64,000 bases of DNA from Iphione sp. A-MEVVRFRX5. Its lineage: Eukaryota. This document shows, one piece after another, positions 22,909 through 48,817 of this stretch (position 1 is the stretch's first letter; every line of letters begins with the position of its first letter). Both the position numbers and the translations under genes were made by a program. The notes below the pieces were generated by a model. The model made no database searches and had not been told where the DNA came from. It saw only the letters and a program-made list of their open reading frames with translations. Where the stretch lies: contig OZ320319.1 of NCBI GenBank assembly GCA_976226885.1, positions 39,990,001-40,054,000 on the forward strand, given 5' to 3'.

Positions 22909-25836
22909 CTATGTATCTTGTTGATCATAAATATGTTCTTGTTTCCATTTGTTGATAATGTCATGTTTGAAACTGTTGATTGGGTGCAATGTGTCATAGT
23001 GTATAGCTTGTATTCTCTCGTTGTTCCATGTTGTAATGATGTGGTAATAACTGGTTTTTGTTATATGTGTATTGTTTGCATCTGGGGGTGTGATAAATTG
23101 GTCAATATTGTTGTTTCGTAGTGCATATTCCCTGGATCTCAACTTGTAATAATGTTGTGTGCATGAGGGTAAGATTTCTAAAAATGCCTTGTATGCTTGG
23201 ATTAGTTGATGTAATTTTATTCTATCTTTGATCAGTAGTATATTTGCTTCGTTGTGTACGTTCAGAGTTGGTGTTCTGTGTTCAAGTTGAAGTGCTCTTT
23301 TCAGACCTCTATTCTGTAATCTTTGTATATGTTGTAATTGATATGCTGAAGAAATAGACCATATGATGTCCATGTAATCAATATGAGGTAGTATTAATAG
23401 CTTGTATAGTAGTACTCTTGTCTTCGTGTCTAACCATTTGTTGATTATATTCAGGTTCATGAGCATCATATTGACTTTCTTGACTATTTGGTGGGTGTGT
23501 TCCCTCATTGTAAGGTTGTTGTCTAACTGTAATCCAAGATATTTATAGCAGCTGACTTGTTCTATTTGGATACTATTGAGGTTAAGAGTGATATTATTTC
23601 TAATTTCTGTTACTTTCTTTGAACTTCCAAAGATCATGAATTTAGTTTTGGATAGATTCAGAGCTAATTTATGGACAGTGAACCATTCAAACACTCTAGA
23701 GAGTGTATCCAAAGCCATCTGTTTACATATTTGTGGGTTGGTGTGGGTACACAGGATGGCTGTGTCATCAGCATACATTGCGAAGCGATGAGGTTCTATT
23801 ACTTGTCTTACGTAATCTATGTATAAAGTGAACAGGACTGGGCCTAACACAGACCCCTGTGGTACTCCGGCTTTGATTTCTCTATAGTCAGATAGTTCTT
23901 TATTTACCTTAGTGCATTGATGTCTATTTGTGAGATAGTTTCTAAAGAGTTCAAGTGCATTTCCTCTCATACCAATATGTTTCAGTTTGTTGATTAATGT
24001 GTCGTGTGATATGGTATCAAAAGCCTTGGAAATATCTAAGAACAGGGCTATGGTGAATTTCTTCTTTGAATTATTCTGACGAATACTATCTACTATGTAC
24101 TGTGTCATTGTCAGTGTGGAATAGCCTCTCCTGTATCCGCCTTGATATTCACTTAGTATATTATTTTGGTCTATATAGTTAACAAATCTGCTATGAATTA
24201 CTTTTTCTAATATCTTGTGTATGAATGGAAGTACCGAAATTGGCCTATAGTTGGTTGGTATCATTGGATCTCCTCCTTTGAATAATGGTGTTATTGTTGC
24301 CTTTTTCCATTTGGTTGGGATATACTGTTGATCAATTACTTTATTTATCAGTTGGGTGATGATCGGAATTAAGATTGGGGATATTTCTATGATCACTTTC
24401 ATTGGAATAGTGTGAATACCAGATGGTTTTGATACTTTAAGCGTTTTAAAAATTTCACTGATTTCATTTGTGTCAGTATGCGTAAATGTTCTAAGTTCTG
24501 TATATACTTGGGGATAGTCATATGTGATGTTTAATGAAGGTAATGATTGTTGGAGTGTCAGTCCTATTGTTGTAAAATGATTATTTAGGATATTAGCTAT
24601 TTCTTTACTATTCTCGAATAGTTGTCCGTTAATTTTAATCTTCTGAATGGTTGTTTCCTCTTTCTTGTTATTTGGGAGAAACTGTTTGAGAAATTTCCAA
24701 TATTTGCCTGGTTCATGTTCATAGTGTCTTAGCATGGTAATTATGTAATTTCTCTTTGCTGATCTGATGAGACTATTAAGTCTATTCCTGATTGCCTTGG
24801 CTTGAGTGAGCAGTTGAGGATCTTTGGTATTCCTATACTTTTTAAATATCTTTTCTTTGTCTTTGCGTAGTTGGGATATTTCTGGTGTTATCCATTTTGG
24901 CAAATTAGTAGGTATCCTTTTGGTCTTGATTGGGGCATATTTGTCCAGTTGGGTTATTACTTTCCTTTCTATGTTGTCCCAGGTCTTATCTAACGCTTCA
25001 TTGATGTTGACTTTAGCTAGTTCTTGTTGTAATGATTCTTGAAACTGGTTGCTATTGAAATCCTTATAGTTTCTTGATTTGATTGTTATGAATTGTGCTT
25101 TCAAAGCATTGCACTTTCTCTTTGTGAAGGTCCAAAAATGATCACTAATATTATTTAGTATTGTTCCTGCTAATGGATACTTCTGAGGTTTATTAGTTAG
25201 GATTAAATCTATTATGGTCGACGTTTTGCTTGTTACTCTGGTGGGTGTCTTGATTAGATTTTTGAAATTAAACGTCTGTGCAAAGTTTCTTAATTTCCTA
25301 TATTGTGGCGTTCTGTTTTTATTGTAATCAATGTTGAAATCCCCAAGTATTATTGTTTCCTTATTGTCTACTTCTATTTCGGTCATGATTCTGTGTAGTG
25401 TATCAAGAAAGATTTCGATGTTGCCTGCTGGTGGCCTATAAATGACTATTATATTAATGTCGCCTATGAAATTATGTGAATATCTAGTAACCATTGCTTC
25501 AATATTGGGATTTGATATACTTAGACCTTCATTGTGGTTCATGGTTGCATTATTTAATAACTTGGTACTATAATACATGGCCACACCTCCATGTTTCTGA
25601 TCAGAATGTTTCCTGTCTAGTCTAATTAGATTATAGTAATTAATATCGAGCAATTTATTATTAATATTGTGATGGAGCCAGGTCTCTGAGACAGCTAAGA
25701 TATCAATGTTTCTTTCTACAAGCTCAACTTGTAGTTTGTCTATCTTGTTGCATAGGCTTCTAAGGTTTGCGTGGATTATATTTAATCCACGCTTGTTAAG
25801 TTCCTGTACTGAGCAGAGTGTAGTGTTGTTTACCAT
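22909..25836 (-). CDS. LINE ORF2: apurinic endonuclease + reverse transcriptase (975 aa, uninterrupted)
   Basis: APE motifs IIHANLRSL, AVSETWL, YRPP, ILGDFN, IIDLIL, SDH. RT motifs YRPISVLP, FLDISKAFD, GVPQGSVLGP, YADD, YKYLG. Confidence 0.95.
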   Translation of the reverse strand: MVNNTTLCSVQELNKRGLNIIHANLRSLCNKIDKLQVELVERNIDILAVSETWLHHNINNKLLDINYYNLIRLDRKHSDQKHGGVAMYYSTKLLNNATMNHNEGLSISNPNIEAMVTRYSHNFIGDINIIVIYRPPAGNIEIFLDTLHRIMTEIEVDNKETIILGDFNIDYNKNRTPQYRKLRNFAQTFNFKNLIKTPTRVTSKTSTIIDLILTNKPQKYPLAGTILNNISDHFWTFTKRKCNALKAQFITIKSRNYKDFNSNQFQESLQQELAKVNINEALDKTWDNIERKVITQLDKYAPIKTKRIPTNLPKWITPEISQLRKDKEKIFKKYRNTKDPQLLTQAKAIRNRLNSLIRSAKRNYIITMLRHYEHEPGKYWKFLKQFLPNNKKEETTIQKIKINGQLFENSKEIANILNNHFTTIGLTLQQSLPSLNITYDYPQVYTELRTFTHTDTNEISEIFKTLKVSKPSGIHTIPMKVIIEISPILIPIITQLINKVIDQQYIPTKWKKATITPLFKGGDPMIPTNYRPISVLPFIHKILEKVIHSRFVNYIDQNNILSEYQGGYRRGYSTLTMTQYIVDSIRQNNSKKKFTIALFLDISKAFDTISHDTLINKLKHIGMRGNALELFRNYLTNRHQCTKVNKELSDYREIKAGVPQGSVLGPVLFTLYIDYVRQVIEPHRFAMYADDTAILCTHTNPQICKQMALDTLSRVFEWFTVHKLALNLSKTKFMIFGSSKKVTEIRNNITLNLNSIQIEQVSCYKYLGLQLDNNLTMREHTHQIVKKVNMMLMNLNIINKWLDTKTRVLLYKLLILPHIDYMDIIWSISSAYQLQHIQRLQNRGLKRALQLEHRTPTLNVHNEANILLIKDRIKLHQLIQAYKAFLEILPSCTQHYYKLRSREYALRNNNIDQFITPPDANNTHITKTSYYHIITTWNNERIQAIHYDTLHPINSFKHDIINKWKQEHIYDQQDT

Positions 25837-26383
25837 AAAATGGGTTCAGAAATGTACACTAATAAGATGAGTGCCTCTAAAAAAGGCAGCGGCAAAAGAG
25901 ATGCCTGCGTTAGCGGGTATTAAACTTATATTGCTATATATATTGGGGTAAAAGATTTTCCTGTAGGGTGGTGTTTCTGTTAATTGTACTCTATTTCTAT
26001 TGCTAAAAAATCTTACCATGTTCTAATGCTAGGGTGTATGCTGTAGTGATTGATTTCGTGTTGTGCTTCGTGTATATCGTACTCGTGGTCGTATGTGTGT
26101 CACCGTTTCCGGTCTGATTAAGTCATTGTGACGTATTTCCGGTATCGTGACGTATTGCGTGCCGTATAGCGTTTTCTGCTTTGTGTGATGTTTCGTATTA
26201 AATGCATATTGTGTTTGTTGCTGCATGTGTACTCTGTAATAAAATCACATTATTGTTGTTAAAAATGGTGGACTAAGGCAGTTTAGAACAAGTTAACTTG
26301 GATGATTATACAGATAATGTTACGTTAACTTGTTCAGCGATTATTACGATCGCGAGTGTTCATTGCTGGTTGTCTTGCTGAAA

Positions 26384-27235
26384 TTAATTCTCTTCTGAGT
26401 ACAGTGTCGGATTGCTGGTTGGTGTAGTTTTGACAAATACTTTGCCATTTACTGTCCATGCACTGGCATATTTGCCAGCCTTTGCATCCATTCTAGCTTT
26501 GTAGTATTTCTTACGATTTACATCAGAAAGATCTTCGTTGAGAAACACTCCATTTGCTACTCTACCTAACACTACTCTCTTGCTATAGATGAGTTGCTTG
26601 GTAGATTCCCTAAGAAACGATACATAGAGTGGCCTGGTAACATTGCTGTTGTCCTTCTTGCCAATACGATAGACCTGATCAAAATCTTGACGTGATACCT
26701 TAGGATTGATGTCCATTTTCTCAAATAGATTGAGAAGTTCATCCACGTCAGATTCGTTGGTCTCTCTCATCCCTACAATCCTCATTGCCTTATTTCTAGC
26801 CCTTTGCTCTATGTCTTCAGTTCTCTGGATATTATCTATGGTAGCAGTTGTTATCTCTGAAACCTGATCTTCGATACAGTCAAACCTCTCTTCAAAGTTA
26901 TTCATTGTATTTCTCAGCGTTGAGTTGATTGCTGCATGGATGATTGTCTCCAGTTCCTTCTTGTTGGTTGAGATATTTGACATCCTTGATACTGTAGACA
27001 TCATTGAAACACTTGAGTTGCTTTCCTCAGGTGCTTTTCCTGTCGACTGCATTTTCTTAGCCATTTTGGCTTTACCATTTCCGCTAGTCCCCGGTGTTGT
27101 GCCCTTTGAAATCCTCTCGCTCTTCTCAATTTCCTCCTTGGTGAATCCATTGAAGGATTCGGAGGAGTCACTCGAGCTGTTCTGCTTGCTGGCGAGATTT
27201 TTTCCTTTTTTGGATTTAAACATCCGTAAAGGCAT
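26384..27235 (-). CDS. LINE ORF1 (283 aa): disordered N-terminus, coiled coil, L1/Tnp22-like RRM-CTD
   Basis: Coiled-coil heptads (FEERFDCIEDQVSEI...IEQRARNKAMRIVG), RRM-like YRIGKK..RPLYVSF, and FLNEDLS...AWTVNGKVFVK. It lies directly upstream of ORF2. Confidence 0.85.
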   Translation of the reverse strand: MPLRMFKSKKGKNLASKQNSSSDSSESFNGFTKEEIEKSERISKGTTPGTSGNGKAKMAKKMQSTGKAPEESNSSVSMMSTVSRMSNISTNKKELETIIHAAINSTLRNTMNNFEERFDCIEDQVSEITTATIDNIQRTEDIEQRARNKAMRIVGMRETNESDVDELLNLFEKMDINPKVSRQDFDQVYRIGKKDNSNVTRPLYVSFLRESTKQLIYSKRVVLGRVANGVFLNEDLSDVNRKKYYKARMDAKAGKYASAWTVNGKVFVKTTPTSNPTLYSEEN

Positions 27236-36005: not shown

Positions 36006-36404
36006 ATGAGAAAATTGGTATGTATACCATATGAACGTTATTTATCACTTATTGAACGGGAGCGAGCTGATCAACAACATCGTCACCGTCAGAGAGAAGA
36101 AAATAGGAGTGAATATAATCCTTTTCGTACAACCATGAGCTTTTCTGAAAGTGATCAATGTAAAGACCTGGACACGTCAGAACTGGCTCAAGGCGGGAGT
36201 GGAAGAATACCAGATAGACGTCCGCGTCATAATCAAGAGCATACAAAACTAAATGAAACAAAAGAGACAGTGAAGCAATTTCGGAAAGGAGGAAGTTCCA
36301 AGCCACCAAAATTTCCTCTGCCACCACCACCAGGTATTCCCTTGACAGGAAGGAAAAGAGACGTTAGGGAATTTAACTGGACAGACGGATGGATGAGTAT
36401 TTAA
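36006..36404 (+). CDS. Polinton ORF of unknown function (132 aa), ending PPPPPG...WTDGWMSI
   Basis: Starts 2 nt after the previous stop and overlaps the integrase start by 16 nt. Confidence 0.6.
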   Translation: MRKLVCIPYERYLSLIERERADQQHRHRQREENRSEYNPFRTTMSFSESDQCKDLDTSELAQGGSGRIPDRRPRHNQEHTKLNETKETVKQFRKGGSSKPPKFPLPPPPGIPLTGRKRDVREFNWTDGWMSI

Positions 36405-37546
36405 CAGCGATTTACTATGACTCGTCCCAACCAGAGGCATTTGGAGGGGCTAAGATACTTTACAACCGTGTAAGATTAGATGGTAAGCCCTATACACTTC
36501 AACAAGTTAAGGATTGGCTCCACAAACAAGAAACATATACATTGTTTGTTCCTTCAACTAATAGTGGAAAAGTGAGACGACCACGGGTGGTTGTGTCTGA
36601 CAAGTTTGATCAGTTTGATGCTGACACAGCTAACATGTCTGCTTGGAGTGCAGACAACAGAGGAATAGGGTTTTTTCTGGTTGTTATTGATATATTTACT
36701 CGCTATGCCTGGACTCGTCCTTTACTCCACCTTACAGCTAAGGAAACGCTATCTGCTCTTCGCTCAGTCATGGAAGAACAAATTTGTCGTGTTCTTCGGA
36801 CTGACGGTGGTAGTGAGTTTAATAATCGGTGGGTAAAGCGCTATCTTCATGCATCTGGTATACAGCACATTGTTACTAAGAATGAAGTTAAAGCAAATTA
36901 TGCTGAACGTCTCATTAAAACTCTCAAGACGCGTCTTACCCGTGATATGTACCATAGACAGACACACGAATGGCATGTTCGATTAGCTGATGTCACTGCA
37001 GCATATAATAATCGTTTTCACAGCTCTATCGGGACTAGCCCGAGCCTGGCTGCTTCTGATAAGGTTGATAAAGTTGATTTGTGGAGAATTCAATATGGTG
37101 TCGTAAGCAACGATAATAATGACGATGCTTTTGCACACCCCCGCCCTTATAAGTTCCAGATTGGTGATGTAGTCCGCCTATCTCATTTCCGCCAGCCTTT
37201 TACTCGTGCATATGATGAACAGTGGACACATGAACTGTTTGTAATTACAAGACGAACTCGCCAGCAAGGTATTGCACAATATTCTATTAAATCTTGGAAT
37301 AATGAAGAAATTGATGGCCGCTTTTACAGTGAAGAACTAATTAAAGTCTATGTGACTGACCAGACTGCATACAAGGTCGAAAAAATTATACGTCGAAAGA
37401 AAATCAACGGGGTTGATGGATTCATTGTACATTGGCTAGGATGGCCACGTCAATACGACTCATGGGTCAGTAAGGAGGATTTAGTTTCAATTACAGGACA
37501 ACGTACACAGCATGTATCTTCTAGCAACTCCTCAACTGAGCTCTAA
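36389..37546 (+). CDS. INT: Retroviral-like (rve) integrase with C-terminal chromodomain (385 aa)
   Basis: Catalytic D-D-E in QFDAD..M, RTDGGSEF and AERLIKTLK; VIDIFTRYAW; chromodomain YKVEKII...VHWLGWPRQYDSWV. Confidence 0.95.
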   Translation: MDEYLTAIYYDSSQPEAFGGAKILYNRVRLDGKPYTLQQVKDWLHKQETYTLFVPSTNSGKVRRPRVVVSDKFDQFDADTANMSAWSADNRGIGFFLVVIDIFTRYAWTRPLLHLTAKETLSALRSVMEEQICRVLRTDGGSEFNNRWVKRYLHASGIQHIVTKNEVKANYAERLIKTLKTRLTRDMYHRQTHEWHVRLADVTAAYNNRFHSSIGTSPSLAASDKVDKVDLWRIQYGVVSNDNNDDAFAHPRPYKFQIGDVVRLSHFRQPFTRAYDEQWTHELFVITRRTRQQGIAQYSIKSWNNEEIDGRFYSEELIKVYVTDQTAYKVEKIIRRKKINGVDGFIVHWLGWPRQYDSWVSKEDLVSITGQRTQHVSSSNSSTEL

Positions 37547-37898
37547 TTTACACCCGTCAAACACACTATCAGACTTTATAATCGAACTGGAACGCCCTAT
37601 TGAACTTATCGGTAACTGGGAATGTGCTTTGCTCAATGTGTATTTGTCTACTGTCCCTACAGGTCACGACATTATCATTTGCACTGATCTTGTCCAGAAC
37701 AACTATATGTCTGGAAAATTACGTCCAGCTGTGCGGATTGTACGTAGCAGTGTTACAGAATTCAGCAACCCTTGGTATGTTCCACTAGCAGCGTCACGTA
37801 TAGAGCGTTTTCGAGTTTTTGTATCTACTCTCTCCAACTCTAAGTTGACTGCAAACATTGTGCGTGCTTCGTTTCATTTCCGCCCAGTTCAGAAGTAA
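37512..37898 (+). CDS. Minor capsid protein (penton, single jelly-roll), compact 128 aa
   Basis: N-terminal HPSNTLSDFIIELERPIELIGNWECAL, central ICTDLV...LRPAVRIV...FSNPWYVPL and C-terminal FHFRP match the Polinton penton pattern. Confidence 0.8.
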   Translation: MYLLATPQLSSNLHPSNTLSDFIIELERPIELIGNWECALLNVYLSTVPTGHDIIICTDLVQNNYMSGKLRPAVRIVRSSVTEFSNPWYVPLAASRIERFRVFVSTLSNSKLTANIVRASFHFRPVQK

Positions 37899-37900
37899 CC

Positions 37901-38257
37901 ATGAACTACGTACCATATATTGCTCGTGCTGATGCATTTGATCATGCTGTCAGGAAAAGGTCTCATTATGTTGGACGTGGAACACCACTCAAGTTAGTTA
38001 CACCCACTGAGCAATCGATTGAACGCGCTAAAGCTAACCTGTCTAAGAACCCTCCACCGCCACCAGGTGGCAATAAAGCTAGTCAGCGGTGTAGCGGATC
38101 TTCCACTCGTCCCAAACCGTCGCGTGCTCAGAAGCGCTCACCATCTTCTGGCCGTTCAACCAGTCCAAAAAAAGCAAAAAAGAAGAGCACCAGTACTAAA
38201 AGTAATATTCAAGGAAATAAGAAAAAGTCATCAACTCGAAAGTTTCGGAAATACTAG
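37901..38257 (+). CDS. Basic K/R/S-rich putative DNA-condensing core protein (118 aa)
   Basis: YVGRG..LVTPTEQSIERAK motif followed by a very basic low-complexity tail; lies between penton and MCP. Confidence 0.65.
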   Translation: MNYVPYIARADAFDHAVRKRSHYVGRGTPLKLVTPTEQSIERAKANLSKNPPPPPGGNKASQRCSGSSTRPKPSRAQKRSPSSGRSTSPKKAKKKSTSTKSNIQGNKKKSSTRKFRKY

Positions 38258-38263
38258 AGCACA

Positions 38264-39616
38264 ATGACCCACATACTCCAGGACTCAGATGATGGACACG
38301 GACTTGACTTGGATTTATTTCATGTCCCTCCTACACAAACTGGTTTGCCTGAACAGTACATTAAAGAATATCTGCCAGTTGGTGATTTAACTAGTGACAG
38401 CGTCATTGAATTTAATGTTCCAAATGACTCTCTTGACTATATAGTGCTACATCGTACACGTCTACGAATAGATGTACAAATACTAAAGGATGATCAAAAA
38501 AAGATTGGAGCTGTTGATAAGGTTGGATTCATAAACATGGGAGCATCTACAATTTTCCAGCGCATGGAACTTTCTCTTCAGCAAACAGTCGTTAATACAG
38601 GGATCGGAAATTCATACCCATATAAAGTTATGATTGACACACTTTCGCGAACTGGTTTATCAGCTGAGCTTGGATGGTTGCGCGTTGCAGGATATGCAAA
38701 AGATAACAATGTGTTCATGGACGATATTGAACTCAATTCAGGTCTTGTGACACGGTCTGATAAGACAGCAAATGGAGCTATCGCGCGTTTGATGACCCGA
38801 CTTTTCAGTGGAATAAGTGACCAACAACGTCCTATAATTAATGGTGTTCCCCTCAATATTAAACTGTATCCAGCTTCAGACCCATTTAGGCTCATGTATG
38901 CAGCTCTTACATCTGGAGACAGAGACAGCAGGGACACTACTTCACTTACTACAGCTCGCACTTCAAAAACATATCATCTAAAAGTAGTTAAAGCTGTATT
39001 GTTTGTCACATTCACCCGCGTGCACGACGGCCTTTTACTTCGTCATCGTTCACTCTTGGAAAAGTCTCCTGCGCTGTATCCATTCATACGAAGCGACTTT
39101 CGATCATTCACAGTCTCTTCTAGCAGTCACGAGTTTGTGGTAGAAAATGTTTTTCAGGACCGAATCCCTCTTCGTTTGTGCATTGGAATGGTAGATGCAG
39201 CTGCATATGCAGGACATGCACAGAAAAACCCATTCAGATTTCAACACTTCAATGCCAATTATCTATCTTTTGAAATCAACGGAGAGTCTCGTCCTGGCCG
39301 TCCTTTTCAACCTGATTTTGCTGCTCGTCAGTTTGCAACGCCCTACACTGCTCTTTATGACTCGTTTCCAGTGTGGTATCACCATCAAATGCCTGACATT
39401 ACTGAAGGTGACTTTGAAAGCGGCTTCACACTGTTTGTTTTTGATTTAGATAAGTCACGTGAAAAAGACCTGTTGTCTCCTCTAAAACGTGGCAACACAC
39501 GTCTGACAATCAGGTTTGCTTCTGCTTTGGAACAGACAATTGTAGTAATTGTACTTGGAACTTTTCCATCTCTCCTAAGCATTGACTTGGCCCGAAATGT
39601 CACAATTACATCCTGA
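38264..39616 (+). CDS. MCP: Major capsid protein (double jelly-roll, 450 aa)
   Basis: N-terminal LDLFHVPPTQT, IEFNVP...LHRTRL, NGVPLNIKL, RIPLRLCIGMV...G...NPFRFQHF and GFTLFVFDL are hallmarks of Polinton MCPs. Confidence 0.92.
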   Translation: MTHILQDSDDGHGLDLDLFHVPPTQTGLPEQYIKEYLPVGDLTSDSVIEFNVPNDSLDYIVLHRTRLRIDVQILKDDQKKIGAVDKVGFINMGASTIFQRMELSLQQTVVNTGIGNSYPYKVMIDTLSRTGLSAELGWLRVAGYAKDNNVFMDDIELNSGLVTRSDKTANGAIARLMTRLFSGISDQQRPIINGVPLNIKLYPASDPFRLMYAALTSGDRDSRDTTSLTTARTSKTYHLKVVKAVLFVTFTRVHDGLLLRHRSLLEKSPALYPFIRSDFRSFTVSSSSHEFVVENVFQDRIPLRLCIGMVDAAAYAGHAQKNPFRFQHFNANYLSFEINGESRPGRPFQPDFAARQFATPYTALYDSFPVWYHHQMPDITEGDFESGFTLFVFDLDKSREKDLLSPLKRGNTRLTIRFASALEQTIVVIVLGTFPSLLSIDLARNVTITS

Positions 39617-40076
39617 GCCCTTACGCAGTAGTGATATATTTTCGTTCCTGCACCCTTACACCCAGTCAGTATGGGTGGACTCGTTTGAACTTCTTCCGAG
39701 AAACCCGCTTTCTCTTCCAAATACTTATCCATACATATTTGTAATTAACACTGATTGTGTAGGCTGTCCAGGTATTCATTGGATAACCATTTATATGCCT
39801 CCAAACTCACCAGCTGAATTTTTTGATTCCATGGGAATGCCTCCGGAACATTATCACTATCTAATACGTGATTTCTTGTATGCTAATTCATCAAGTTATA
39901 TTTTCTCTGCTGTTCGTATTCAAGGACACTTACCTGTGTGTGGACATTATTGTCTTGCATATTTACATTCGCGTATCCATGGTATCAGTTATGCTGAATT
40001 TATTTGTTCTTTTGGATCAAACGTAACTAATAATGACTTTGCGGTTGTTGAATACTTTAATATATACAAAACTTGA
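39597..40076 (+). CDS. PRO: Adenain-like cysteine protease (159 aa from ATG 39597)
   Basis: INTD...GIHW (His), FFDSMG (Asp), RIQ (Gln) and VCGHYC (Cys). Overlaps the MCP end by 20 nt. Confidence 0.92.
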   Translation: MSQLHPEPLRSSDIFSFLHPYTQSVWVDSFELLPRNPLSLPNTYPYIFVINTDCVGCPGIHWITIYMPPNSPAEFFDSMGMPPEHYHYLIRDFLYANSSSYIFSAVRIQGHLPVCGHYCLAYLHSRIHGISYAEFICSFGSNVTNNDFAVVEYFNIYKT

Positions 40077-40339
40077 TACCGCTGTATGTTACTTTAAGTA
40101 GTCATAAACATACTTACATGTTCTCTTAATGAAACGTCTTCAAGGACAACCATCTAGTGGAAAGAATAAGAACATTGTATCAGACATTATATGTATATAT
40201 ATATATATATATGTGAACATTGTATCAGTCATATTACTACATCTAGTGTGACAATAAACATCTAATCGGATAATTGTGTATATGTTTACTTTTGTAAGAG
40301 CCAATAACAAGTCACGAGTACAATATTACATTGGTAATA

Positions 40340-40342
<3 letters not shown>

Positions 40343-40416
<74 letters not shown>
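40343..40416. repeat. (TC)n microsatellite inside the Polinton
   Basis: Directly visible. Confidence 0.95.
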
Positions 40417-40419
<3 letters not shown>

Positions 40420-40702
40420 AATGGTACAATTAATGTTATTACCTCTCTGTTAGCGTCTTCGTGCTCTGTAGTTTCCTTCAATCCAGGCCATCACCGTTGC
40501 AGACATTCACGTCAGAATCAAACAGAATATAATAAGCTCAATAATATAATAATAATAATAATAATAATATCATACAGTAGTCAAACTGGAGAGATAATAT
40601 CCCAACTTTTGGAACTATGATACAATAGCAATATTAAAGACCATTAGTTTATATATATTATGACACACACTGTTAATACTATAAAGCACAAACACAATGA
40701 AT

Positions 40703-40706
<4 letters not shown>

Positions 40707-40750
<44 letters not shown>
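40707..40750. repeat. (CA)n microsatellite inside the Polinton
   Basis: Directly visible, abutting the stop codon of membrane protein A. Confidence 0.95.
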
Positions 40751-40751
<1 letters not shown>

Positions 40752-40753
<2 letters not shown>

Positions 40754-41819
40754 ATTGCGCTTTCGACTTGTTTATTAGCGTTATAAAGCTCTCGTTCGTC
40801 CTTCCATTCCTTACCCCATAAATTGATGAGTCATGCCACAACGCACTGTTTATTCCTCTCCTTCTCATCCGTCTATTTGCTGAGGTTGATTGAGCAGGCT
40901 GAGCAGCTTTCTTGCACTTTTTAATAGCATACCAGCACGTCACTACAGCTGCAATAGATGCGCACACTGCCACTGATACTACCGCAATAAGTACAGGCAA
41001 ACCGACTCCATTACTTGTCTGCCTCATTTTATTGCCACCAGTCGCCCTTGTTGACACAATTTGTCCGTCATTTCCTGACACTGTTGACCCCTGTGTGGTA
41101 AACACACTGCTCTTCCAGCTTGTTGAAAACGGATGTTTATCCAGTGTGCTTATTACAGATTCAGAACTCTTAGTGGTGACCATTACTGTGGTCGACCCCC
41201 TCCTTCCTTTTGAACTCTTCATCGCTTTAGTTCTAGTCGGAAACGTAACATGTTTGAGGCTAGTACCCTTCGATGTTATAGTCTGTAAATTAGAGACTGA
41301 ATGCGTCATTGCAGTTATAGATGTAACAGTCATAGGCAATGAACGGACAGTAGAAGTTCTTGGAGGTGGTGAAGGGAGTGCAGACATATTAGTTACCGTT
41401 CCAGTACTACTTGTTGTAAAGGTTGTCCCTATCGATGATTGACTTATATCTGCAGATGAACGAGATGGTGGTGATGTGGGGGATGTGGAAGGAAGGGGGG
41501 AACAGTCTGAATATACTCTCACCTTCACTGGAACTTTCTTCAGCGAATCACAGTTAAACTGCACTCCTTGGTGTCTAATATCCAGATATAGAATGTTTGG
41601 GAAAATGTTAAACACATGCTCCCGAACTTCCCGGATTGTGCACCCGCCCCAATCCAATCCTTTCATACGACGGTTCCTCCGAAAATTCACCAAGAAAGGG
41701 TCCAGTCCACCCCTACATCGCATAACTGGCGGGCTACAGCCATAGCACCTGATGGGGCACTTTGCATATGCATGCATACTAAGCACAAATGCAAAAGCAG
41801 CCAATAAAATCTTCCTCAT
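40752..41819 (-). CDS. Type I membrane protein A (355 aa): signal peptide, LRRNT-like cap, one degenerate LRR, Ser/Thr mucin stalk, TM, basic tail
   Basis: MRKILLAAFAFVLSMHAYA signal; CPIRCYGCSPPVMRC; MKGLDWGGCTIREVREHVFNIFPNILYLDIRHQ; ~170-aa S/T-rich stalk; TM LPVLIAVVSVAVCASIAAVVTCWYAI followed by KKCKK. Confidence 0.8.
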
Positions 41820-42383
41820 CGTTGCAAAATTTCCACGACCGGATTTCCTGACCTGTACTTCTTTAAACACGATATGCCTTTGATTCCGCCTCCTAGGTCC
41901 CCGCCTGTGCTTTCACTGCCTTCTTCCTAGCAACTGAACTAAACTCAACTAGACGCACATGTTTCCCACCAAATAATTTATGGGGCCCTCAACCGTATTT
42001 CCCCTCTTATCTCGTACCCTGCATAGTGCAGATTACACCAAGATACATTTACGACAATTTTATCGCCTCTTGACCGCGAGCGCCCTCGAACTAACAGTAT
42101 CCATTACTTTGGACCAGTCCACTTTTAGATAACGCTTTCTTGAGTACTCATTAAATTACTAACAGCTAACATTTCTTCATTAACTTCATTATCTTGTTTC
42201 ACATCTGAGTATATGTGAACTTCATACTATACATATTTGTTTCGTTCTTCCTTTGACCACCTGTTAAATTTCCCACACGCACTAATTAACCATTCTCATC
42301 CCACCACCCCTCTCTTAAATCCACTTGCACCCTCCCTTGCTCATCATCACCTCATTGCATCACGTTACCCGGTCACATCCGCC

Positions 42384-44767
42384 ATGTTGTTCTTCGTTTT
42401 AATCGGATTAGGGCTGCTGTCCGGAGTCGCTCCGAACGATATTCTTTGTCGCAGATGTGTGTGCATACGTAAGACTGTACACTGCAATGGAGTAGCAACA
42501 TCTTTCTTCTATACAGTGAAGCACATTTACCCAAGATTCGAAAAATTGTATCTTCACGCGCCTTACATAGTAGATCCAGAAGCGGCACTCATCGATCGCC
42601 TAGCAGTCGTTTTTCCTAACCTGGTTTTTGTGAGTGCAATTGACCGTCACAGAAATACAATCTTTACTCTGGATTTCTCGACATCACCAACAACTACTCC
42701 TGCTTCAAATGAACCTGTTTCAAGTCTTGAAGAAGTGCCCAACACAGTGACAAAAAACAGTGAACGCCGTGTTTCATCAGTCGCCATTACAACAGTTACA
42801 GTGACTCGTGTCTCAGGCTCCGGACCCGCACAAAGTGACATCACAACTGTTGAAGTCAGTGAAATCAACCCAACAATATTTCACTCTGTCAGTGGATCTG
42901 CTTCAAATGTCTTTTCTGACCCAGACATTATCCTTCTCACTTGTGTCGGAGCCACTTTCTTAATCATAGTTTTTGGACTTATCTTCATACCGTGTGTCCG
43001 CCACGAGTGCCCACCTTGCAGGCGGCCATATTTTGGACTACCGGGAAGTTCCTCTACCTCCGGTTCGACAACGCCCGCTTCTGTGCACACACCTGTTCAT
43101 AGGTATGTACTTACGTTACATTACTTGTATTCACTACTATATATGTATATAATATATATATATAATACATCGCACATCTGTATTGTTCACTCAGCATTTG
43201 TGTGCAGTATAAAGAATAGTGTCCTACTAACATTATTAATCAGCACACAATATTACAACATATTTAGCCCTTGTCCTTGTATTGTTGTGTACTTACTACA
43301 CTCTTTAACCCATCCCTCTACATTACCGACCATCCTAGTCATTCTTGTTTTAGTCCAATCCTCGAATCACTCATTGCATGAGAGTATTATACACGCGTGA
43401 ACATTTTGTGCATGCTGAGTTCTGTGTTGTTCATTATCATAAGACCTGCATCCATCAATACATGTTTCAGCGCACGAAGAAGCACCGCACCCTCACCAGA
43501 CCCAACTGCAACCCTCCTCAGCACATGCCTACCACGTTCCTGTTTTAATCTGCCTCCTCCTCCTCCTCCTCCTCCTCCCCCTTCCCCTCCTGTTCCTTTA
43601 TCCCCGTCCCTATTTGAGACGATACCCCTCGACACCCTCTCATCAACGCCAACCACATCCAACTCTCGGTTTATAACCACGTCTGACTACTCTTCACGAT
43701 ATCCGCTTGTCCCCATGCCACCCCCCACACCCCGTTTACCCCGCCGTACTTTATCACCCTCTCTCCCATTGCTTTCATCTTCTGTGACCTCTTCCAATCC
43801 TCATCTTCACCCACCCTTAACACCCCGCCCTTCCCGAACGGCCGTCCAACCACCTATACGCACTACAAGTTTATCAAAAAGCTGTGCATCAGTAGCCGCT
43901 GCTCTTCAACACATCGTGGACAAAGCAACTGCCTCTGTAACCGCCTTCTCAAATAATGAGCAAGCATCTGCTCGCCCCATTAACCCATCAGCTCTCCCAC
44001 TTGCACGTACTTTCAACATAAACACTACTCGCTCAAGCACTGCAACCACTACGTCCACGACTTTGCACTCAATGCACTCACGGCCATCTAACGCAAATAC
44101 TCATCCACGGCTACAAGAAAAGGCTATAACACAAGTTCATTATGTCACCATCCGGCCACCATCAACTCCTGATAGATTACCCTCGGAAACAACTGCTTGC
44201 CCGTCGCCCGTACCTCGTCCGAACCTCATTACCTTCTCACCTCCCCAGTCCTGTCCCTCACGTTCTCCTTCTCTTCCTGTATGTACTTCTACTCCTTCGT
44301 CGTCCCCTTCCTCTTCTCTTCATGACAATCCTATTACTACTTCTCATTCTATGATGGATCTTCCGTCTATACCGTCTTCTTCTTCTTCTCCATCTCCGTC
44401 TTCTCCATCTGGGACTGACGCGACCAGATTAACCAAGTGGACACACCCTATTCACGTCCCCGTAACTACCTCTGCCATCAACTCATCTCCGACAACACGG
44501 TGGCCCAAACACCTGTCTGTTGTCAGACCTTCTACCAGTGCCTGCTCCTCTAGTGGTGTTTCTGACTCAACAAAACAGTGGTCCAAACACCCATCTGTCG
44601 CCACGCCCTCTACTAGTGCCTCAGGATGCGAAGATATCAACAATACGACCCGCAAAAGGAAGACACAGAAGCAGAAAGAATGCAGACCGCCTTCAACCGT
44701 GAGACGGTCAGAGCGCATCATGTCGCGCAGCAAAACGGTAATTTATGCCCGCACGTGTAGAATATAA
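42384..44767 (+). CDS. Predicted two-exon type I membrane protein B (42384-43102 + 43444-44767; 680 aa): signal peptide, LRRNT-like head, S/T stalk, TM, long Pro/Ser/Thr-rich tail
   Basis: gccATG; MLFFVLIGLGLLSGVAP signal; CRRCVCIRKTVHC; FPNL; TM IILLTCVGATFLIIVFGLIFIPCV. The AG|gtatgt donor (43103) and tcataag acceptor (ending 43443) are both phase 2 and fuse two ORF-track frames. Confidence 0.72.
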
Positions 44768-44822
44768 ATAATACTAATAATATAATAATATATACATAAC
44801 ACACCCACTGACCAAACAGTAT

Positions 44823-45008
44823 NNNNNNNNNNNNNNNNNNNNNNNNNNNNNNNNNNNNNNNNNNNNNNNNNNNNNNNNNNNNNNNNNNNNNNNNNNNNNN
44901 NNNNNNNNNNNNNNNNNNNNNNNNNNNNNNNNNNNNNNNNNNNNNNNNNNNNNNNNNNNNNNNNNNNNNNNNNNNNNNNNNNNNNNNNNNNNNNNNNNNN
45001 NNNNNNNN
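44823..45008. other. Assembly gap inside the Polinton
   Basis: Run of N, so the true element length is uncertain. Other gaps: 2991-3151, 10307-10453, ~51743-51905, ~53497-53717. Confidence 0.99.
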
Positions 45009-45054
45009 TCGTCATCTACATTATTCATATTATTACTATTGTTGTTCTTTACAG

Positions 45055-45497
45055 CCCCCACGGGACACAGGAGTGATGCCCTTACCTACATCCTGCGACT
45101 TCCCATCGCCACGGTCTCCCAAGAATGGTTCATCAACTACTACTGCAGTGTAGACTGTAATACTCAAGACCAACTACAACCATGGGATGTTCGGATTCCA
45201 TACACTCTTCACGGCCATATGGTCTATTCACCAACATTTCCATCTGCTCCTCCATCTCTATGGATATGCTCATTACCTGGCTGTCTAACAACTAGTCCAG
45301 TCAACTTACCACACCTGCGAACGGACCGACAAGACTTGCATGACCAGTCATGCTACTCTATAAACAATGACGTTGTGTCAAATCAGTACTACAGCCTACG
45401 TCAAAACTTTTCTGAACAAATATCCCCTTATACAGCTTATAATGGGAGAGTACTGAACCAGTATCCAGTATCTACGTCTCTCATAGTTTTAAACTAG
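45055..45497 (+). CDS. Probable terminal exon of an unknown Polinton gene whose 5' part lies in or before the N-gap
   Basis: ttgttctttacag acceptor followed by ~147 open codons rich in W/Y/C/P, in AT-rich DNA where long ORFs are rare. Confidence 0.45.
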
Positions 45498-46534
45498 CCG
45501 AATATGATATATATATTTTCTTGTATCTTATAGGATATCACCATCAGCATAATATTGCTCACATTATTATAGACAGACATATACTTGTCAATTCTAGGTT
45601 CATACACTAACTAGTGAGCCATGCCTTTCTTTCAGTAGGATTCCATCTGAAATACATACACAGTGTATCACTATAATAGTGATAATCGTGTCTACGACTC
45701 TCATGACTGGCACATACTACCCGTGCATGGACTGACGATTATCAGAGTTCGGTATAGTAAGTTACATACTATTTCCAACAAAGTATGTTGTTCTTTCTTT
45801 GTTTTGTTTATTTCTTTACGCCATATTCAAGACTTAGACGAACATCCTGTAGCCTATGTTAATCTGTTAGCTTATTAATCATAGTGTATTGTACTTATTT
45901 ATCACATATATGCCTAATGGCGACATCTAAAGCAGCAGAACAGGATTTCCTCGGTTTAATCCTAGTATATTATCTTACTATAACCTCACATATATACCTT
46001 GTTGACACTAGAGCAGTAGGACAGGAACTCCATGATTCATTCATTACAGTAACTAATCGGAGAGTCTCAGGTTATTTATCAGAAGTTTGTTTGTTATAGT
46101 TAGAACACAGAAGTTTTTTTATAGTTAGACAACACAACGAATATCTACAGTTCTTAGTATACTTATTGTATTCTATAGAAAGCATCTACAGACATCGTCA
46201 TTGTATTCTCTTTACTATAGTCTCTTACATACTCACAGTAGTAATATACATTACATGTTGTACCCCTATATTAGTGCTACTATTGTAGATTATATAACGT
46301 ACTGTTCATTGTCTCAATAACCGCGACCATTGTCCAACATCAACAACTAAACAACAATATTAAGTTCAACACGTTTAATTGTTCTGTATTATCCATTACA
46401 TACGCAATTACCAAATCACAATACATCCATGCAGCTATTATTTATTATACATCTGATTGCCACTTCATGAATCCCATGTGTATTACTCTAAACACAGTTC
46501 TACTCTATTATAACTAGTACATTTACTTTCTCTT

Positions 46535-46577
<43 letters not shown>

Positions 46578-46690
46578 TTATTATATACCACCACTACTAC
46601 TACTACTACTACTACTTCTACATATCAGTACACTACTATGCTCCCCTCTAATACTACTACTACCAACACCACCACCACCACCACCACCAG
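46535..46690. repeat. (CA)n, (ACT)n and (CCA)n low-complexity tract inside the Polinton
   Basis: Directly visible. Confidence 0.9.
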
Positions 46691-47151
46691 TTTAAACAAT
46701 TTTAATGCTATCCATACATTCTCGTCAGATTGTCCAACCCAGTAAAGCATCACTGCATTTTCTACAATAACCCTTATTGCACACTCCCATATCAGCTACC
46801 AACACCTACATATGTATAACACATATATATGGTCCAAACCGTCTGTTGCATTAGTGAGTATAATGATTTCAACTGTTTACACAATGTACTCCTGTTGTAT
46901 TAGCATGTTTCATTCTCGATTAGTACAGAGGTATACGTGATCAAGGTTGCTTCAAAATATAGGAGCATTCAACACTAATTTCAACGTTACTATGACATTA
47001 GCATTTATTTCTACTTGGTTAATACAGATGTATACATGATCAGGTTGATCATCAAACTGTAGAAATTCATCATTATGTATACTCAGGTAACTAGTTCAAT
47101 AAACAGTATACTTAATAATATTGTTATCTTCAGTGTGCCTCATCAAGCAAT

Positions 47152-48316
47152 CTACTTCCTTTTCAACACTTCAAAATCCCGTTCAAACGTGATACCCATG
47201 TACTGGCTCACATTCTGTTTGCCATTGTTCATCACCGATTTGCACATTTCACTATCTAGCTCAATATCATCGACCTCGTCAATCTCGTCACACCCGAGGT
47301 ATATCTTCAACATACACCTTGTTCCCTCACTCAGCCTAGTTTCAGAAATTCGGACGTGTGACGCATGAACTGCCTCCCGATCCAGCATGTCGGGCAACTC
47401 CAAACACCCTGGCGAGTGATGCTCCTGTCCATCCACCTGGGCACGGCAACCATTACACCACTGTCTGATCATCTTCTTGTAACCATCGCACAGCATGTAA
47501 GCATATGTTCGCTCACACACTTCACTGGGTGTAATAACTAACTCATCCTCTGTTAAGAACTCTATCAGCTGGTCCTCTCTCTGGTTATTAGTTCCCTGTG
47601 CAATACAGAAGTCGTGATTGATAAACACATTATCATTTGTTGTGACAGAACCGTCCACACATGAAATGAACTGGTAACTAGACCTCTGGTGCTTGATCCG
47701 ACGCTCCTTCCTCCTCTTCTTTGCGCTCGAACAACCGTCAGCGTCTCCACTCTCTCCTACGTCTTTGTCCCCACTTGAAGACTGTTTTATTTTCTCGAAA
47801 ACGTTAGTGCACTCATCCTCCGTTAAGTTGAAACAATCCAGACTGAAAGATAATCCAAACATTAGAACCATATCTCAACAAACAATATACCAGTCATAAA
47901 TCCACATATAATAACACACACTAATAGTATACAGGTACACATAACCACGTCATACGCATACATATTCCATACTTATTCAAACACATTACTTACTTAATTC
48001 GATCACCTGACTTCCCTTCTCGCACGAAGCAAACATACTGACGCCCATTGTATGTATTCGTCTCCAACCTCCATTTCTGATGTTCAATAGCCACCTTGCA
48101 CTCTTCCCCGTCGTGAATCTCCTTCCACATCCTCTTCGCATCTTCAAACAACTTCTTGTATGCCTTCCATCTCCTTGTAATGTGACCTCCCTTTTTTCTC
48201 TCGAGCTTCACATAATCACCAGCCAGTTCAATCGCAACACTATTAGAAACAGCTTCCATTTCACACACAAAACTGACCAGAACCTCACAAATCTGACACG
48301 CGTCCTTCGTCTCCAC
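47152..48316 (-). CDS. Predicted two-exon gene (48316-47994 + 47842-47152; 337 aa): PC4-like ssDNA-binding fold plus Cys/His metal-binding motif
   Basis: AA|gtaagt donor and tctttcag acceptor, both phase 2. The join gives KWRLETNTYNGRQYVCFVREGKSGDRINLDCFNLTEDECTNVFEKI, followed by KKRRK (NLS-like) and CNGC...EHH...CL. Confidence 0.65.
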
Positions 48317-48743
48317 AATATATATCCTCTAGTCCTATGACCTTATACCACACTACCGTTTCCCTGAACAATAAGTCTATATCTGTTCTCTGCTATCTTT
48401 ACTTTGTCTTCCAATAACTTATTTGACGTTATCTTCAAATATTACCAGCTATTCTCTCTCCCATATATTCATTGTTTCGTGTATCCTTTCTATCCTCATG
48501 ATCTACCCTTATCACATTGTCCTGATAACCTCTTTCCTTATCTACCGCTCTTAATCCATGCCATTGTCTGTAAACCACTTCTTCTTCGAAACACACTTAC
48601 CTCTTATATATATCGTTTCCATATTTATTTGATCATTTCTCATCATCCTCTCATTCTATACACATCTAAACCCACACTCACTACACATTCTTCTTGAAAT
48701 ACATCCTCATTCAAGAAACAAGTCGACATTTGCTTCTCACTAC

Positions 48744-48811
48744 CACGTGACACCTCCAAGTCACGTGGTGTTCCTGAAACTAGCTCCAACCCTGTCCCCC
48801 ACATCACTACT
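48744..48811 (-). repeat. Right terminal inverted repeat
   Basis: cacgtgacacctccaagtcacgtggtgttcctgaaactagctccaaccctgtcccccacatcactact, the reverse complement of the left end. Confidence 0.95.
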
Positions 48812-48817
48812 GACGAT
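48812..48817 (+). repeat. Target-site duplication GACGAT (right copy)
   Basis: Identical to 28082-28087. Confidence 0.93.

Follow-up and report, generated by a model that had tools for sequence, protein, structure and literature searches.

A conserved divergent pair of predicted membrane-glycoprotein genes, one with a minimal leucine-rich-repeat head, in a large Maverick/Polinton radiation of Iphione sp.

What are two membrane-protein genes doing beside the capsid and protease genes of a Maverick/Polinton element, and are they passing cargo or part of the element itself? The question is raised by a 64,000-nucleotide stretch of DNA from Iphione sp. A-MEVVRFRX5 (GenBank assembly GCA_976226885.1, contig OZ320319.1, forward-strand positions 39,990,001 to 40,054,000), here called the window, in which such an element bears two head-to-head genes, A and B, between its presumed protease gene and its right end. 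A first, sequence-only reading had described them as paralogous host-surface effectors, possibly captured from a host gene with leucine-rich repeats (LRRs). The two genes form an accessory cassette for membrane proteins, of protein families not yet named, in a relative of DNA viruses. At a probability of about 0.5, the pair would be a fixed, adenovirus-E3-like cassette that modulates the host and is common to a large Maverick radiation. The parts of the pair in the window are as follows, where ORF is open reading frame and TM is transmembrane.

41819 to 40752 (-): gene A ORF, 355 residues
40815..41819 (-): gene A predicted exon 1, with signal peptide, mini-LRR head, Ser/Thr-rich stalk, TM helix and basic cytoplasmic segment
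41502..41759 (-): gene A head, residues 21-106, with an LRRNT-type four-Cys cap, two LRR strands and a truncated C-terminal cap
40932..41000 (-): gene A TM helix, about residues 274-296, with juxtamembrane Cys, by hydropathy
41820..42383 (no strand): the 564 nt upstream of both divergent genes, a predicted bidirectional promoter
42384..43102 (+): gene B predicted exon 1, with signal peptide, Cys-capped LRR-like head, Ser/Thr-rich stalk and TM segment; predicted phase-2 donor at 43103
about 42447-42677 (+): gene B head
about 42930-42992 (+): gene B TM segment, with juxtamembrane Cys, by hydropathy

The starts at 41819 (-) and 42384 (+) and the anatomy of signal, cap, stalk and TM segment were as first described for both genes. 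Signal peptides and TM segments were assigned by Kyte-Doolittle hydropathy only; by this measure, a signal-like start is found for A in 45 and for B in 50 of 51 non-redundant families, and a TM segment in 47 of 51 for each gene. The stalk of A (about residues 107-270) holds 35-60% Ser/Thr per 20 residues, and that of B (about residues 99-180) 25-40%.

The sequence-only reading had left room for a one-off insertion, with the pair absent from other copies; instead, the pair was found throughout three lineages of the element. The genome of 1.18 Gb was searched with the best 150 candidates scored per query. Head A matched in all 150 scored of 648 candidates and head B in all 150 of 528, and queries taken from distant copies opened two lineages in addition to that of the window. 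Among 103 fetched 10-kb loci (80 picked by a match to A or B, 20 by capsid and three by ATPase), 101 hold both genes, all head-to-head, with the head starts at most 1 kb apart in 99. In loci with the protease gene, capsid and protease are followed by A in reverse orientation and then by B. The pair was found in 3/3 loci picked by ATPase and in 19/20 picked by capsid alone, the latter being capsid matches absent from the A and B lists that represent few families and are not independent. There are two exceptions: in L140, the distal accessory gene follows closely on the protease gene, probably through a deletion, and L187 is a degraded copy. Six unrelated Maverick- or polinton-like virus (PLV)-like elements, found by their ATPase, gave no A or B match to lineage-1 profiles in the fetched stretches.

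At least 51 families, at less than 95% capsid identity, coexist in this one genome among the loci sampled. Their median pairwise identity is 61% for the capsid segment, 44% for A and 28% for B. Distances of A and B are correlated with a Spearman coefficient of 0.80, and those of A and B with the capsid with 0.59 and 0.62 (51 families; the pairs are not independent), a closer tracking for which linkage alone can be enough. In lineage 1, pN (the proportion of nonsynonymous differences) is 0.27 for head A and 0.36 for head B, versus a near-saturated synonymous proportion (pS) of 0.77 and 0.78, and the median ratio of the nonsynonymous to the synonymous rate (dN/dS) is 0.24 for A (30 unsaturated of 528 pairs) and 0.42 for B (7 unsaturated of 465 pairs). 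Both heads are under purifying selection. Surface genes had been expected to lie outside the core set; within this radiation, A and B are as constant as the core genes and are not optional cargo. In two lineage-2 copies (L149, L151), polymerase sequence adjoins gene A where the protease-capsid block would be expected; these are probably rearranged elements.

Head A is a minimal extracellular LRR by its sequence signature and its predicted fold. It has seven invariant Cys and a cap spacing of C-x3-C-x2-C-x6-C. Its profile matched animal extracellular LRR proteins among PDB sequences (TLR3, E 2.7e-9 and 9.2e-15, summed over repeats, with single stretches weak), and all 60 matches listed were LRR proteins. 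The best stretch pairs the second strand and following Cys of A with the last repeat of TLR3 and the start of its C-terminal cap. Individual A members gave no match to a Pfam LRR family. The model of head A (predicted local distance difference test, pLDDT, 86) points the same way, as all 50 listed fold matches are LRRs (best Z 7.6, root-mean-square deviation (rmsd) 3.0 over 86 residues), including TLR3 (2a0z, Z 7.4), a hagfish variable lymphocyte receptor (VLR; 2o6q, Z 6.4) and GPIb-IX (8wfs, Z 5.8); all listed Foldseek matches are likewise LRRs, at E of 0.02 or above. The Atlas result for A lies in the same direction and is weak (0.90, 126 of 256 features). Thus, by profile and model, the LRR head first proposed for A is real, with two LRR strands and a truncated C-terminal Cys cap in place of the single repeat described.

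The arrangement of Cys cap, LRR strands and C-terminal cap is shared with GPIb-beta/GPIX, GPIb-alpha, agnathan VLRs and TLR repeats. Unlike these animal receptors, A has just two repeat strands and a cap spacing of its own, and is encoded by a mobile element. On the predicted concave face, each of the two repeat strands exposes an Asp, and these residues are conserved in 97% and 92% of the 36 heads compared, which represent three lineages; the stalks vary freely. In VLRs the face is diversified and the repeat number variable, whereas in these 36 heads the face is conserved and the repeat number fixed. We infer that this combination would fit a conserved ligand rather than VLR-like diversification.

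Head B can be called no more than LRR-like; it probably derives from an LRR that has decayed. Its cap, C-x2-C-x-C-x6-C, is invariant, with a four-Cys spacing that we take to be LRRNT-like, and is followed by a strand, a helix and a further strand. The model (pLDDT 85) gave weak matches that mix LRR and non-LRR folds (COI1, Z 5.1; GPIb-beta, 3rfe, Z 5.0, rmsd 4.1; HEN1, Z 5.0). No LRR protein appeared among PDB sequence matches at E of 10 or below with a narrow or a wide profile, no LRR matched in Pfam, and nothing was found among viral structures at E of 0.001 or below. The LRR fold first assigned to B stays a candidate, its best Z of 5.1 being mixed with those of non-LRR folds. GPIb-beta is its best LRR match, from which B differs in having neither the Asn ladder nor the C-terminal cap. 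The Atlas result for B (0.83) is a lead only, and matches to a GABA receptor and to VWC were judged to be due to chance or Cys spacing. Some lineage-3 copies of B carry two head units in tandem (L176, L177 and L183; e.g., L177:5438-6301), so the head is a self-contained unit of about 78 residues.

The ATGs of A and B lie 565 bp apart, and both heads have an FPN(I/L) motif and a Cys cap with the spacing first reported. Comparison does not show the proposed paralogy: BLASTP gave E 0.087, and hhalign gave a probability of 3.3% with narrow alignments and 54.6% with wide ones, the latter over just 19 columns, which are the common stretch around FPN(I/L). A complex prediction of the two heads, with the alignments unused, scored 0.00, which speaks neither for nor against their pairing. 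The divergent spacer measures 397-714 bp in the 51 families, and on B's strand it contains GCCATNTT, a word we take to be YY1-like, in 29 of 51 families versus 2.2 in shuffles; in the window's copy, the word merely overlaps B's ATG. TATA boxes show no enrichment there (25 and 27 of 51 versus 21 shuffled). The fixed spacer and the enriched word support a conserved promoter in this region; activity in both directions, as first suggested, is not shown by these features.

Both ORFs are probably first exons, judging from predicted splice sites. In all three lineages, a donor-like site follows the TM segment, in phase 0 for all 36 strong cases of gene A and in phase 2 for 32 of 36 strong cases of gene B; the remaining 15 of 51 families per gene have a weak donor, no donor or no TM segment. 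The B ORF often stops at the predicted donor itself, and a downstream acceptor opens a frame of at least 100 residues in 31 of 36 cases. In lineage 1, the predicted tail frame of B reaches about 1,000 residues and is rich in Ser, Pro and Thr. The predicted exons in the window are as follows.

40814 (-): gene A phase-0 donor
40443..40475 (-): gene A micro-exon 2, 33 nt, phase 0/0, assigned by likeness to exons of 33-54 nt in relatives
40118..40153 (-): gene A micro-exon 3, 36 nt, with an acidic-hydrophobic motif
43412-44767 (+): Pro/Ser-rich ORF of 451 residues holding B exon 2, without Pfam match
43471..44737 (+): gene B exon 2, a Pro/Ser/Thr-rich disordered cytoplasmic tail with F-E-T-I-P-L and RRSxR
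45055..45153 (+): gene B last exon, 32 codons plus stop, frame checked, proposed for this copy only

Both gene ends first given would thereby shift, as 43102 probably abuts B's predicted splice donor rather than ending the gene, and the last 20 codons of the A ORF are probably intron. The predicted spliced B in the window is 694 residues long, and the intron preceding its last exon spans a stretch of N. In lineage 1, gene A continues with a variable exon of 33-54 nt and then one of 36-39 nt that ends within about 40 nt of the protease stop and is followed by a donor; no such micro-exons were found in gene A of lineage 2. Micro-exon 2 of the window's copy has a weak pyrimidine tract. Acceptors over the 2.6 kb downstream at 17 loci gave no consistent candidate for a last exon of A; this exon would overlap the protease gene on the opposite strand or be placed further on. 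In the window, the donor that closes predicted exon 3 of A (40117 (-)) is 41 nt away from the protease stop, so the A transcript would run antisense over the protease gene, possibly acting as an early/late switch.

Short motifs recur in the predicted tails. Among 51 B tails, Phi-E-[DEST]-[IV]-x-L occurs in 31 (0.8 in shuffles), RRSxR, near the end of exon 2, in 27 (0.7), an RVxF-like motif in nine (0.1) and Y[NHD]LR in seven (0.2), of which three have the strict form YNLR[SKPR]; WxDTTF is found in 10/10 lineage-3 tails, far above shuffles. PPxY is below chance. The window's B tail has only Phi-E-[DEST]-[IV]-x-L and RRSxR, and a motif like the former is also found in the 36-nt exon of A. The first motif resembles sorting or LC3-binding motifs, and the RVxF-like one resembles PP1 docking motifs.

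Taken together, the conserved head, the freely varying stalk, the probable palmitoylation sites, the motif-bearing tails and the spliced non-core genes fit a cassette that acts at the host membrane. Under this reading, A and B would be type I membrane glycoproteins that are encoded by spliced transcripts, expressed jointly from the divergent promoter and active on the membranes of the host cell. The small LRR head of A, raised on an O-glycosylated stalk, would bind one conserved host ligand or receptor by its concave face. The acidic-hydrophobic motif in the micro-exon of A and in most B tails could route the complex via host sorting or autophagy adaptors, and B would be the membrane anchor of a disordered short-motif scaffold of 100-1,200 residues, with PP1-docking-like and nucleosome-anchor-like motifs, that rewires host signalling. 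The net effect may be that host sensing is blunted or that a cell with an active element is protected. Of the host-surface effector first proposed, the conserved membrane-protein pair stands, and a pure surface decoy is less likely, since the predicted introns and the long cytoplasmic tail of B shift the likely function to intracellular signalling or trafficking.

The closest parallel is found in the E3 region of adenoviruses, which are double-jelly-roll DNA viruses related to Mavericks. This region, too, is a spliced accessory block of type I membrane glycoproteins, and their tail motifs act on trafficking or signalling in the host, an action that is only proposed for A and B. The E3 proteins compared here are of the RID, E3/49K and CR1 types. 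No sequence or fold match between them and A or B was seen, their heads are not LRRs and their genes are co-directional, in contrast to the divergent pair described here. No E3 protein is known to have a disordered tail of several hundred residues. Adenovirus E3 type I membrane proteins are reported to remove or engage host receptors (PMC7327562, 10.1101/2023.02.23.529489).

Several points weigh against an E3-like cassette. All splices are predicted, with strong donors in just 36 of 51 families per gene, the frame of at least 100 residues follows the B donor in only 31 of 36 cases, and the last exon of A was not found in the acceptor search. The motif patterns were written after the tails had been seen, so their contrast with shuffles is overstated; the tail motifs are common to related families by descent; and the RVxF-like and Y[NHD]LR motifs are confined to lineage 1 and missing from the window's copy, with a different motif in lineage 3. 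The best fold Z values (7.6 for A, 5.1 for B) fall inside the range that the tool calls common. Motifs of the nucleosome type would be hard to explain if the protein sits in the plasma membrane, and the near-universal retention of the pair is equally expected of a structural virion protein.

The last point leads to an alternative that we regard as unlikely, yet the best placed of those considered: an enveloped Maverick particle for which A and B provide envelope or egress functions, where A attaches and the long, basic-ended tail of B grips the capsid or the DNA core as the particle buds or passes from cell to cell. The pair is kept as faithfully as the core genes and always adjoins the capsid-protease block, and a small head on a mucin stalk resembles viral attachment proteins. 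The premise that the element is non-enveloped is itself not established for Mavericks, as nematode ones carry a fusogen, which gives a precedent; that report describes MFUS-1 as an 866-residue, herpes gB-like class III fusogen with a signal peptide and a single TM segment (10.1101/2022.07.12.499685). The latter two features are shared by A and B, which differ from MFUS-1 in heads of 80-90 residues that are LRR or LRR-like, in their mucin stalks and in the lack of a fusogen match. Indeed, no fusogen is among the listed fold matches of either head, and no fusogen-like or fusogen-sized membrane ORF was seen elsewhere in the window's element. Furthermore, A lies on the strand opposite to the capsid genes, the tail length varies about ten-fold, and A and B have several predicted introns, unlike the core genes, which are intronless according to PMC8097293.

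Rather improbable is a role for B as a membrane-to-chromatin link, either as a nucleosome tether of the inner nuclear membrane or endoplasmic reticulum or as a receptor whose tail is cleaved and bound for the nucleus, with A as sensing partner. The RVxF-like motif of nine tails, if it is a PP1 dock as we presume, would suit such a link, as would Y[NHD]LR in seven and RRSxR in 27 tails near the end of exon 2. However, a tail of several hundred residues together with a mucin stalk would be unusual for inner-nuclear-membrane proteins, RRSxR may be a plain nuclear localization signal or basic patch, and the tail exon could also serve a separate soluble protein. The YNLR type matches nucleosome-binding peptides, namely YNLRS of lamin A and GGYNLRPR of foamy virus Gag, which bind the nucleosome acidic patch according to two reports (PMC12527912, PMC12125541); it is present in a minority of tails and missing from the window's copy.

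Less probable again is superinfection exclusion, in which an expressed copy would occupy or remove an entry receptor common to related Maverick families. A binding face conserved across families, as in A, is what a shared receptor would lead one to expect, and at least 51 families coexist in one genome. That so many coexist also shows that exclusion is not strong in the germ line, and the long tail of B is left unexplained. Finally, the lack of a Pfam family and of relatives outside this genome might suggest a single insertion of host sequence, or ORFs that arose by chance. This reading is refuted by the hundreds of matches with conserved gene order across three lineages, by purifying selection and by conserved splice phases, and has next to no probability.

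The search for relatives covered large sequence collections. Against a set of 5.8 billion sequences, neither head A nor head B at near lengths, nor the A alignment among longer proteins, found relatives outside this genome. The B profile gave three matches among 1.84 billion representatives, which were repeat proteins aligned over a helix-strand stretch of 30 residues only and were rejected, as were five metagenome loci with 28-residue matches that did not have the Cys cap. IMG/VR gave no match to A, which says little because the capsid gene was also unmatched there. The suggested capture from a host LRR gene found no donor, as the own-genome searches, among the best 150 candidates scored, were filled by Maverick copies. 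The absence of relatives may reflect repeat masking in public annotations. In the Polinton/Maverick literature as covered here, leaving aside supplementary files such as the genome maps of adintoviruses in PMC8502044, which may show similar genes, no LRR, signal-peptide, TM or glycoprotein accessory genes like A and B are described. According to two papers, Maverick/adintovirus genes are intronless, accessory ORFs flank the core, as they do here, and membrane-active accessory proteins are of PLA2X, gasdermin and cupiennin types (PMC8097293, PMC8502044); in contrast, the present genes encode type I LRR/mucin glycoproteins that are near-universal in their radiation and predicted to be spliced.

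The element that carries the cassette in the window is laid out as follows.

28088..48811 (no strand): intact Maverick/Polinton bearing A and B, by its ends, terminal inverted repeats and target duplication
28088-28155 and 48744-48811: 68-nt terminal inverted repeats, termini (AGT)2...(ACT)2
28082-28087 and 48812-48817: perfect 6-bp target-site duplication
29864..40076 (+): core module, from pPolB to presumed protease
29864-34723 (+): pPolB with a C-terminal NADAR domain, by Pfam
34841-35467 (+): packaging ATPase, by Pfam
36389-37546 (+): integrase with chromo domain, by Pfam
37512-37898 (+): presumed minor capsid, by gene order and motifs
38264-39616 (+): presumed major capsid, by gene order and motifs
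39597-40076 (+): presumed protease, by gene order and motifs

The element is a Maverick/Polinton by its pPolB, ATPase, integrase, terminal inverted repeats, ends and target duplication. In Pfam, pPolB matched PF03175 (E 8.5e-7, 28.6 bits versus a cut-off of 25.8), the ATPase matched PF04665 (E 3.5e-5, over its cut-off) and the integrase matched rve below the cut-off (E 3.4e-5, 24.5 bits versus 32.6), with a chromo domain present. The capsid, minor capsid and protease candidates are intact conserved ORFs in the usual order without Pfam match; the labels double-jelly-roll major capsid, minor capsid and adenain-like protease are presumed from motifs and gene order. PMC8097293 lists pPolB, integrase, ATPase, terminal inverted repeats, a 6-bp target duplication and (AGT)2//(ACT)2 ends as Maverick/Polinton features. 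Over the part compared (36.4-46 kb), two further copies are 98.7-99.9% identical to the window's element; the family has therefore been mobile in recent times.

In addition, pPolB carries C2H2 zinc fingers N-terminally and the NADAR domain (E 2e-13) C-terminally. Two more accessory ORFs lie on the minus strand (47152-47871 and 47990-48259; no clear Pfam match), of which the one of 239 residues, containing Cys and His, keeps the same place in all three lineages. An apparently intact long interspersed nuclear element (ORF1 and endonuclease-reverse transcriptase; 22909-27235 (-)) lies about 850 bp left of the Maverick. The Maverick load is very large genome-wide, with 1,264 first-look candidates for the capsid segment. 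The unrelated Maverick/PLV-like elements mentioned above (L116-L123 on small contigs C34, C54, C60 and C64, and L106-L109 on C19) have a small hydrophobic ORF in common; several are whole contigs of 15-31 kb and possibly free or unplaced viral genomes.

It could be speculated, tentatively and at long odds, that the radiation encodes its own two-chain receptor, in which a captured mini-LRR chain senses a host signal and the giant spliced tail of its partner carries phosphatase-docking and nucleosome-anchor motifs to chromatin; such a virus-built sensing pathway, or else a fusogen-free envelope, would be undescribed for any Polinton. Head A, by its predicted fold, is a naturally occurring extracellular LRR module reduced to a minimum, at about 86 residues, and the two small foldable heads and the set of tail motifs are directly assayable. 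Annotation based on ORFs can miss Maverick genes that have predicted introns and a divergent promoter, a possible reason for the lack of relatives in protein databases. A surface-gene pair under selection across dozens of families would mean that these elements act at the host membrane, which bears on how animal Mavericks deal with their hosts and on whether they live as viruses.

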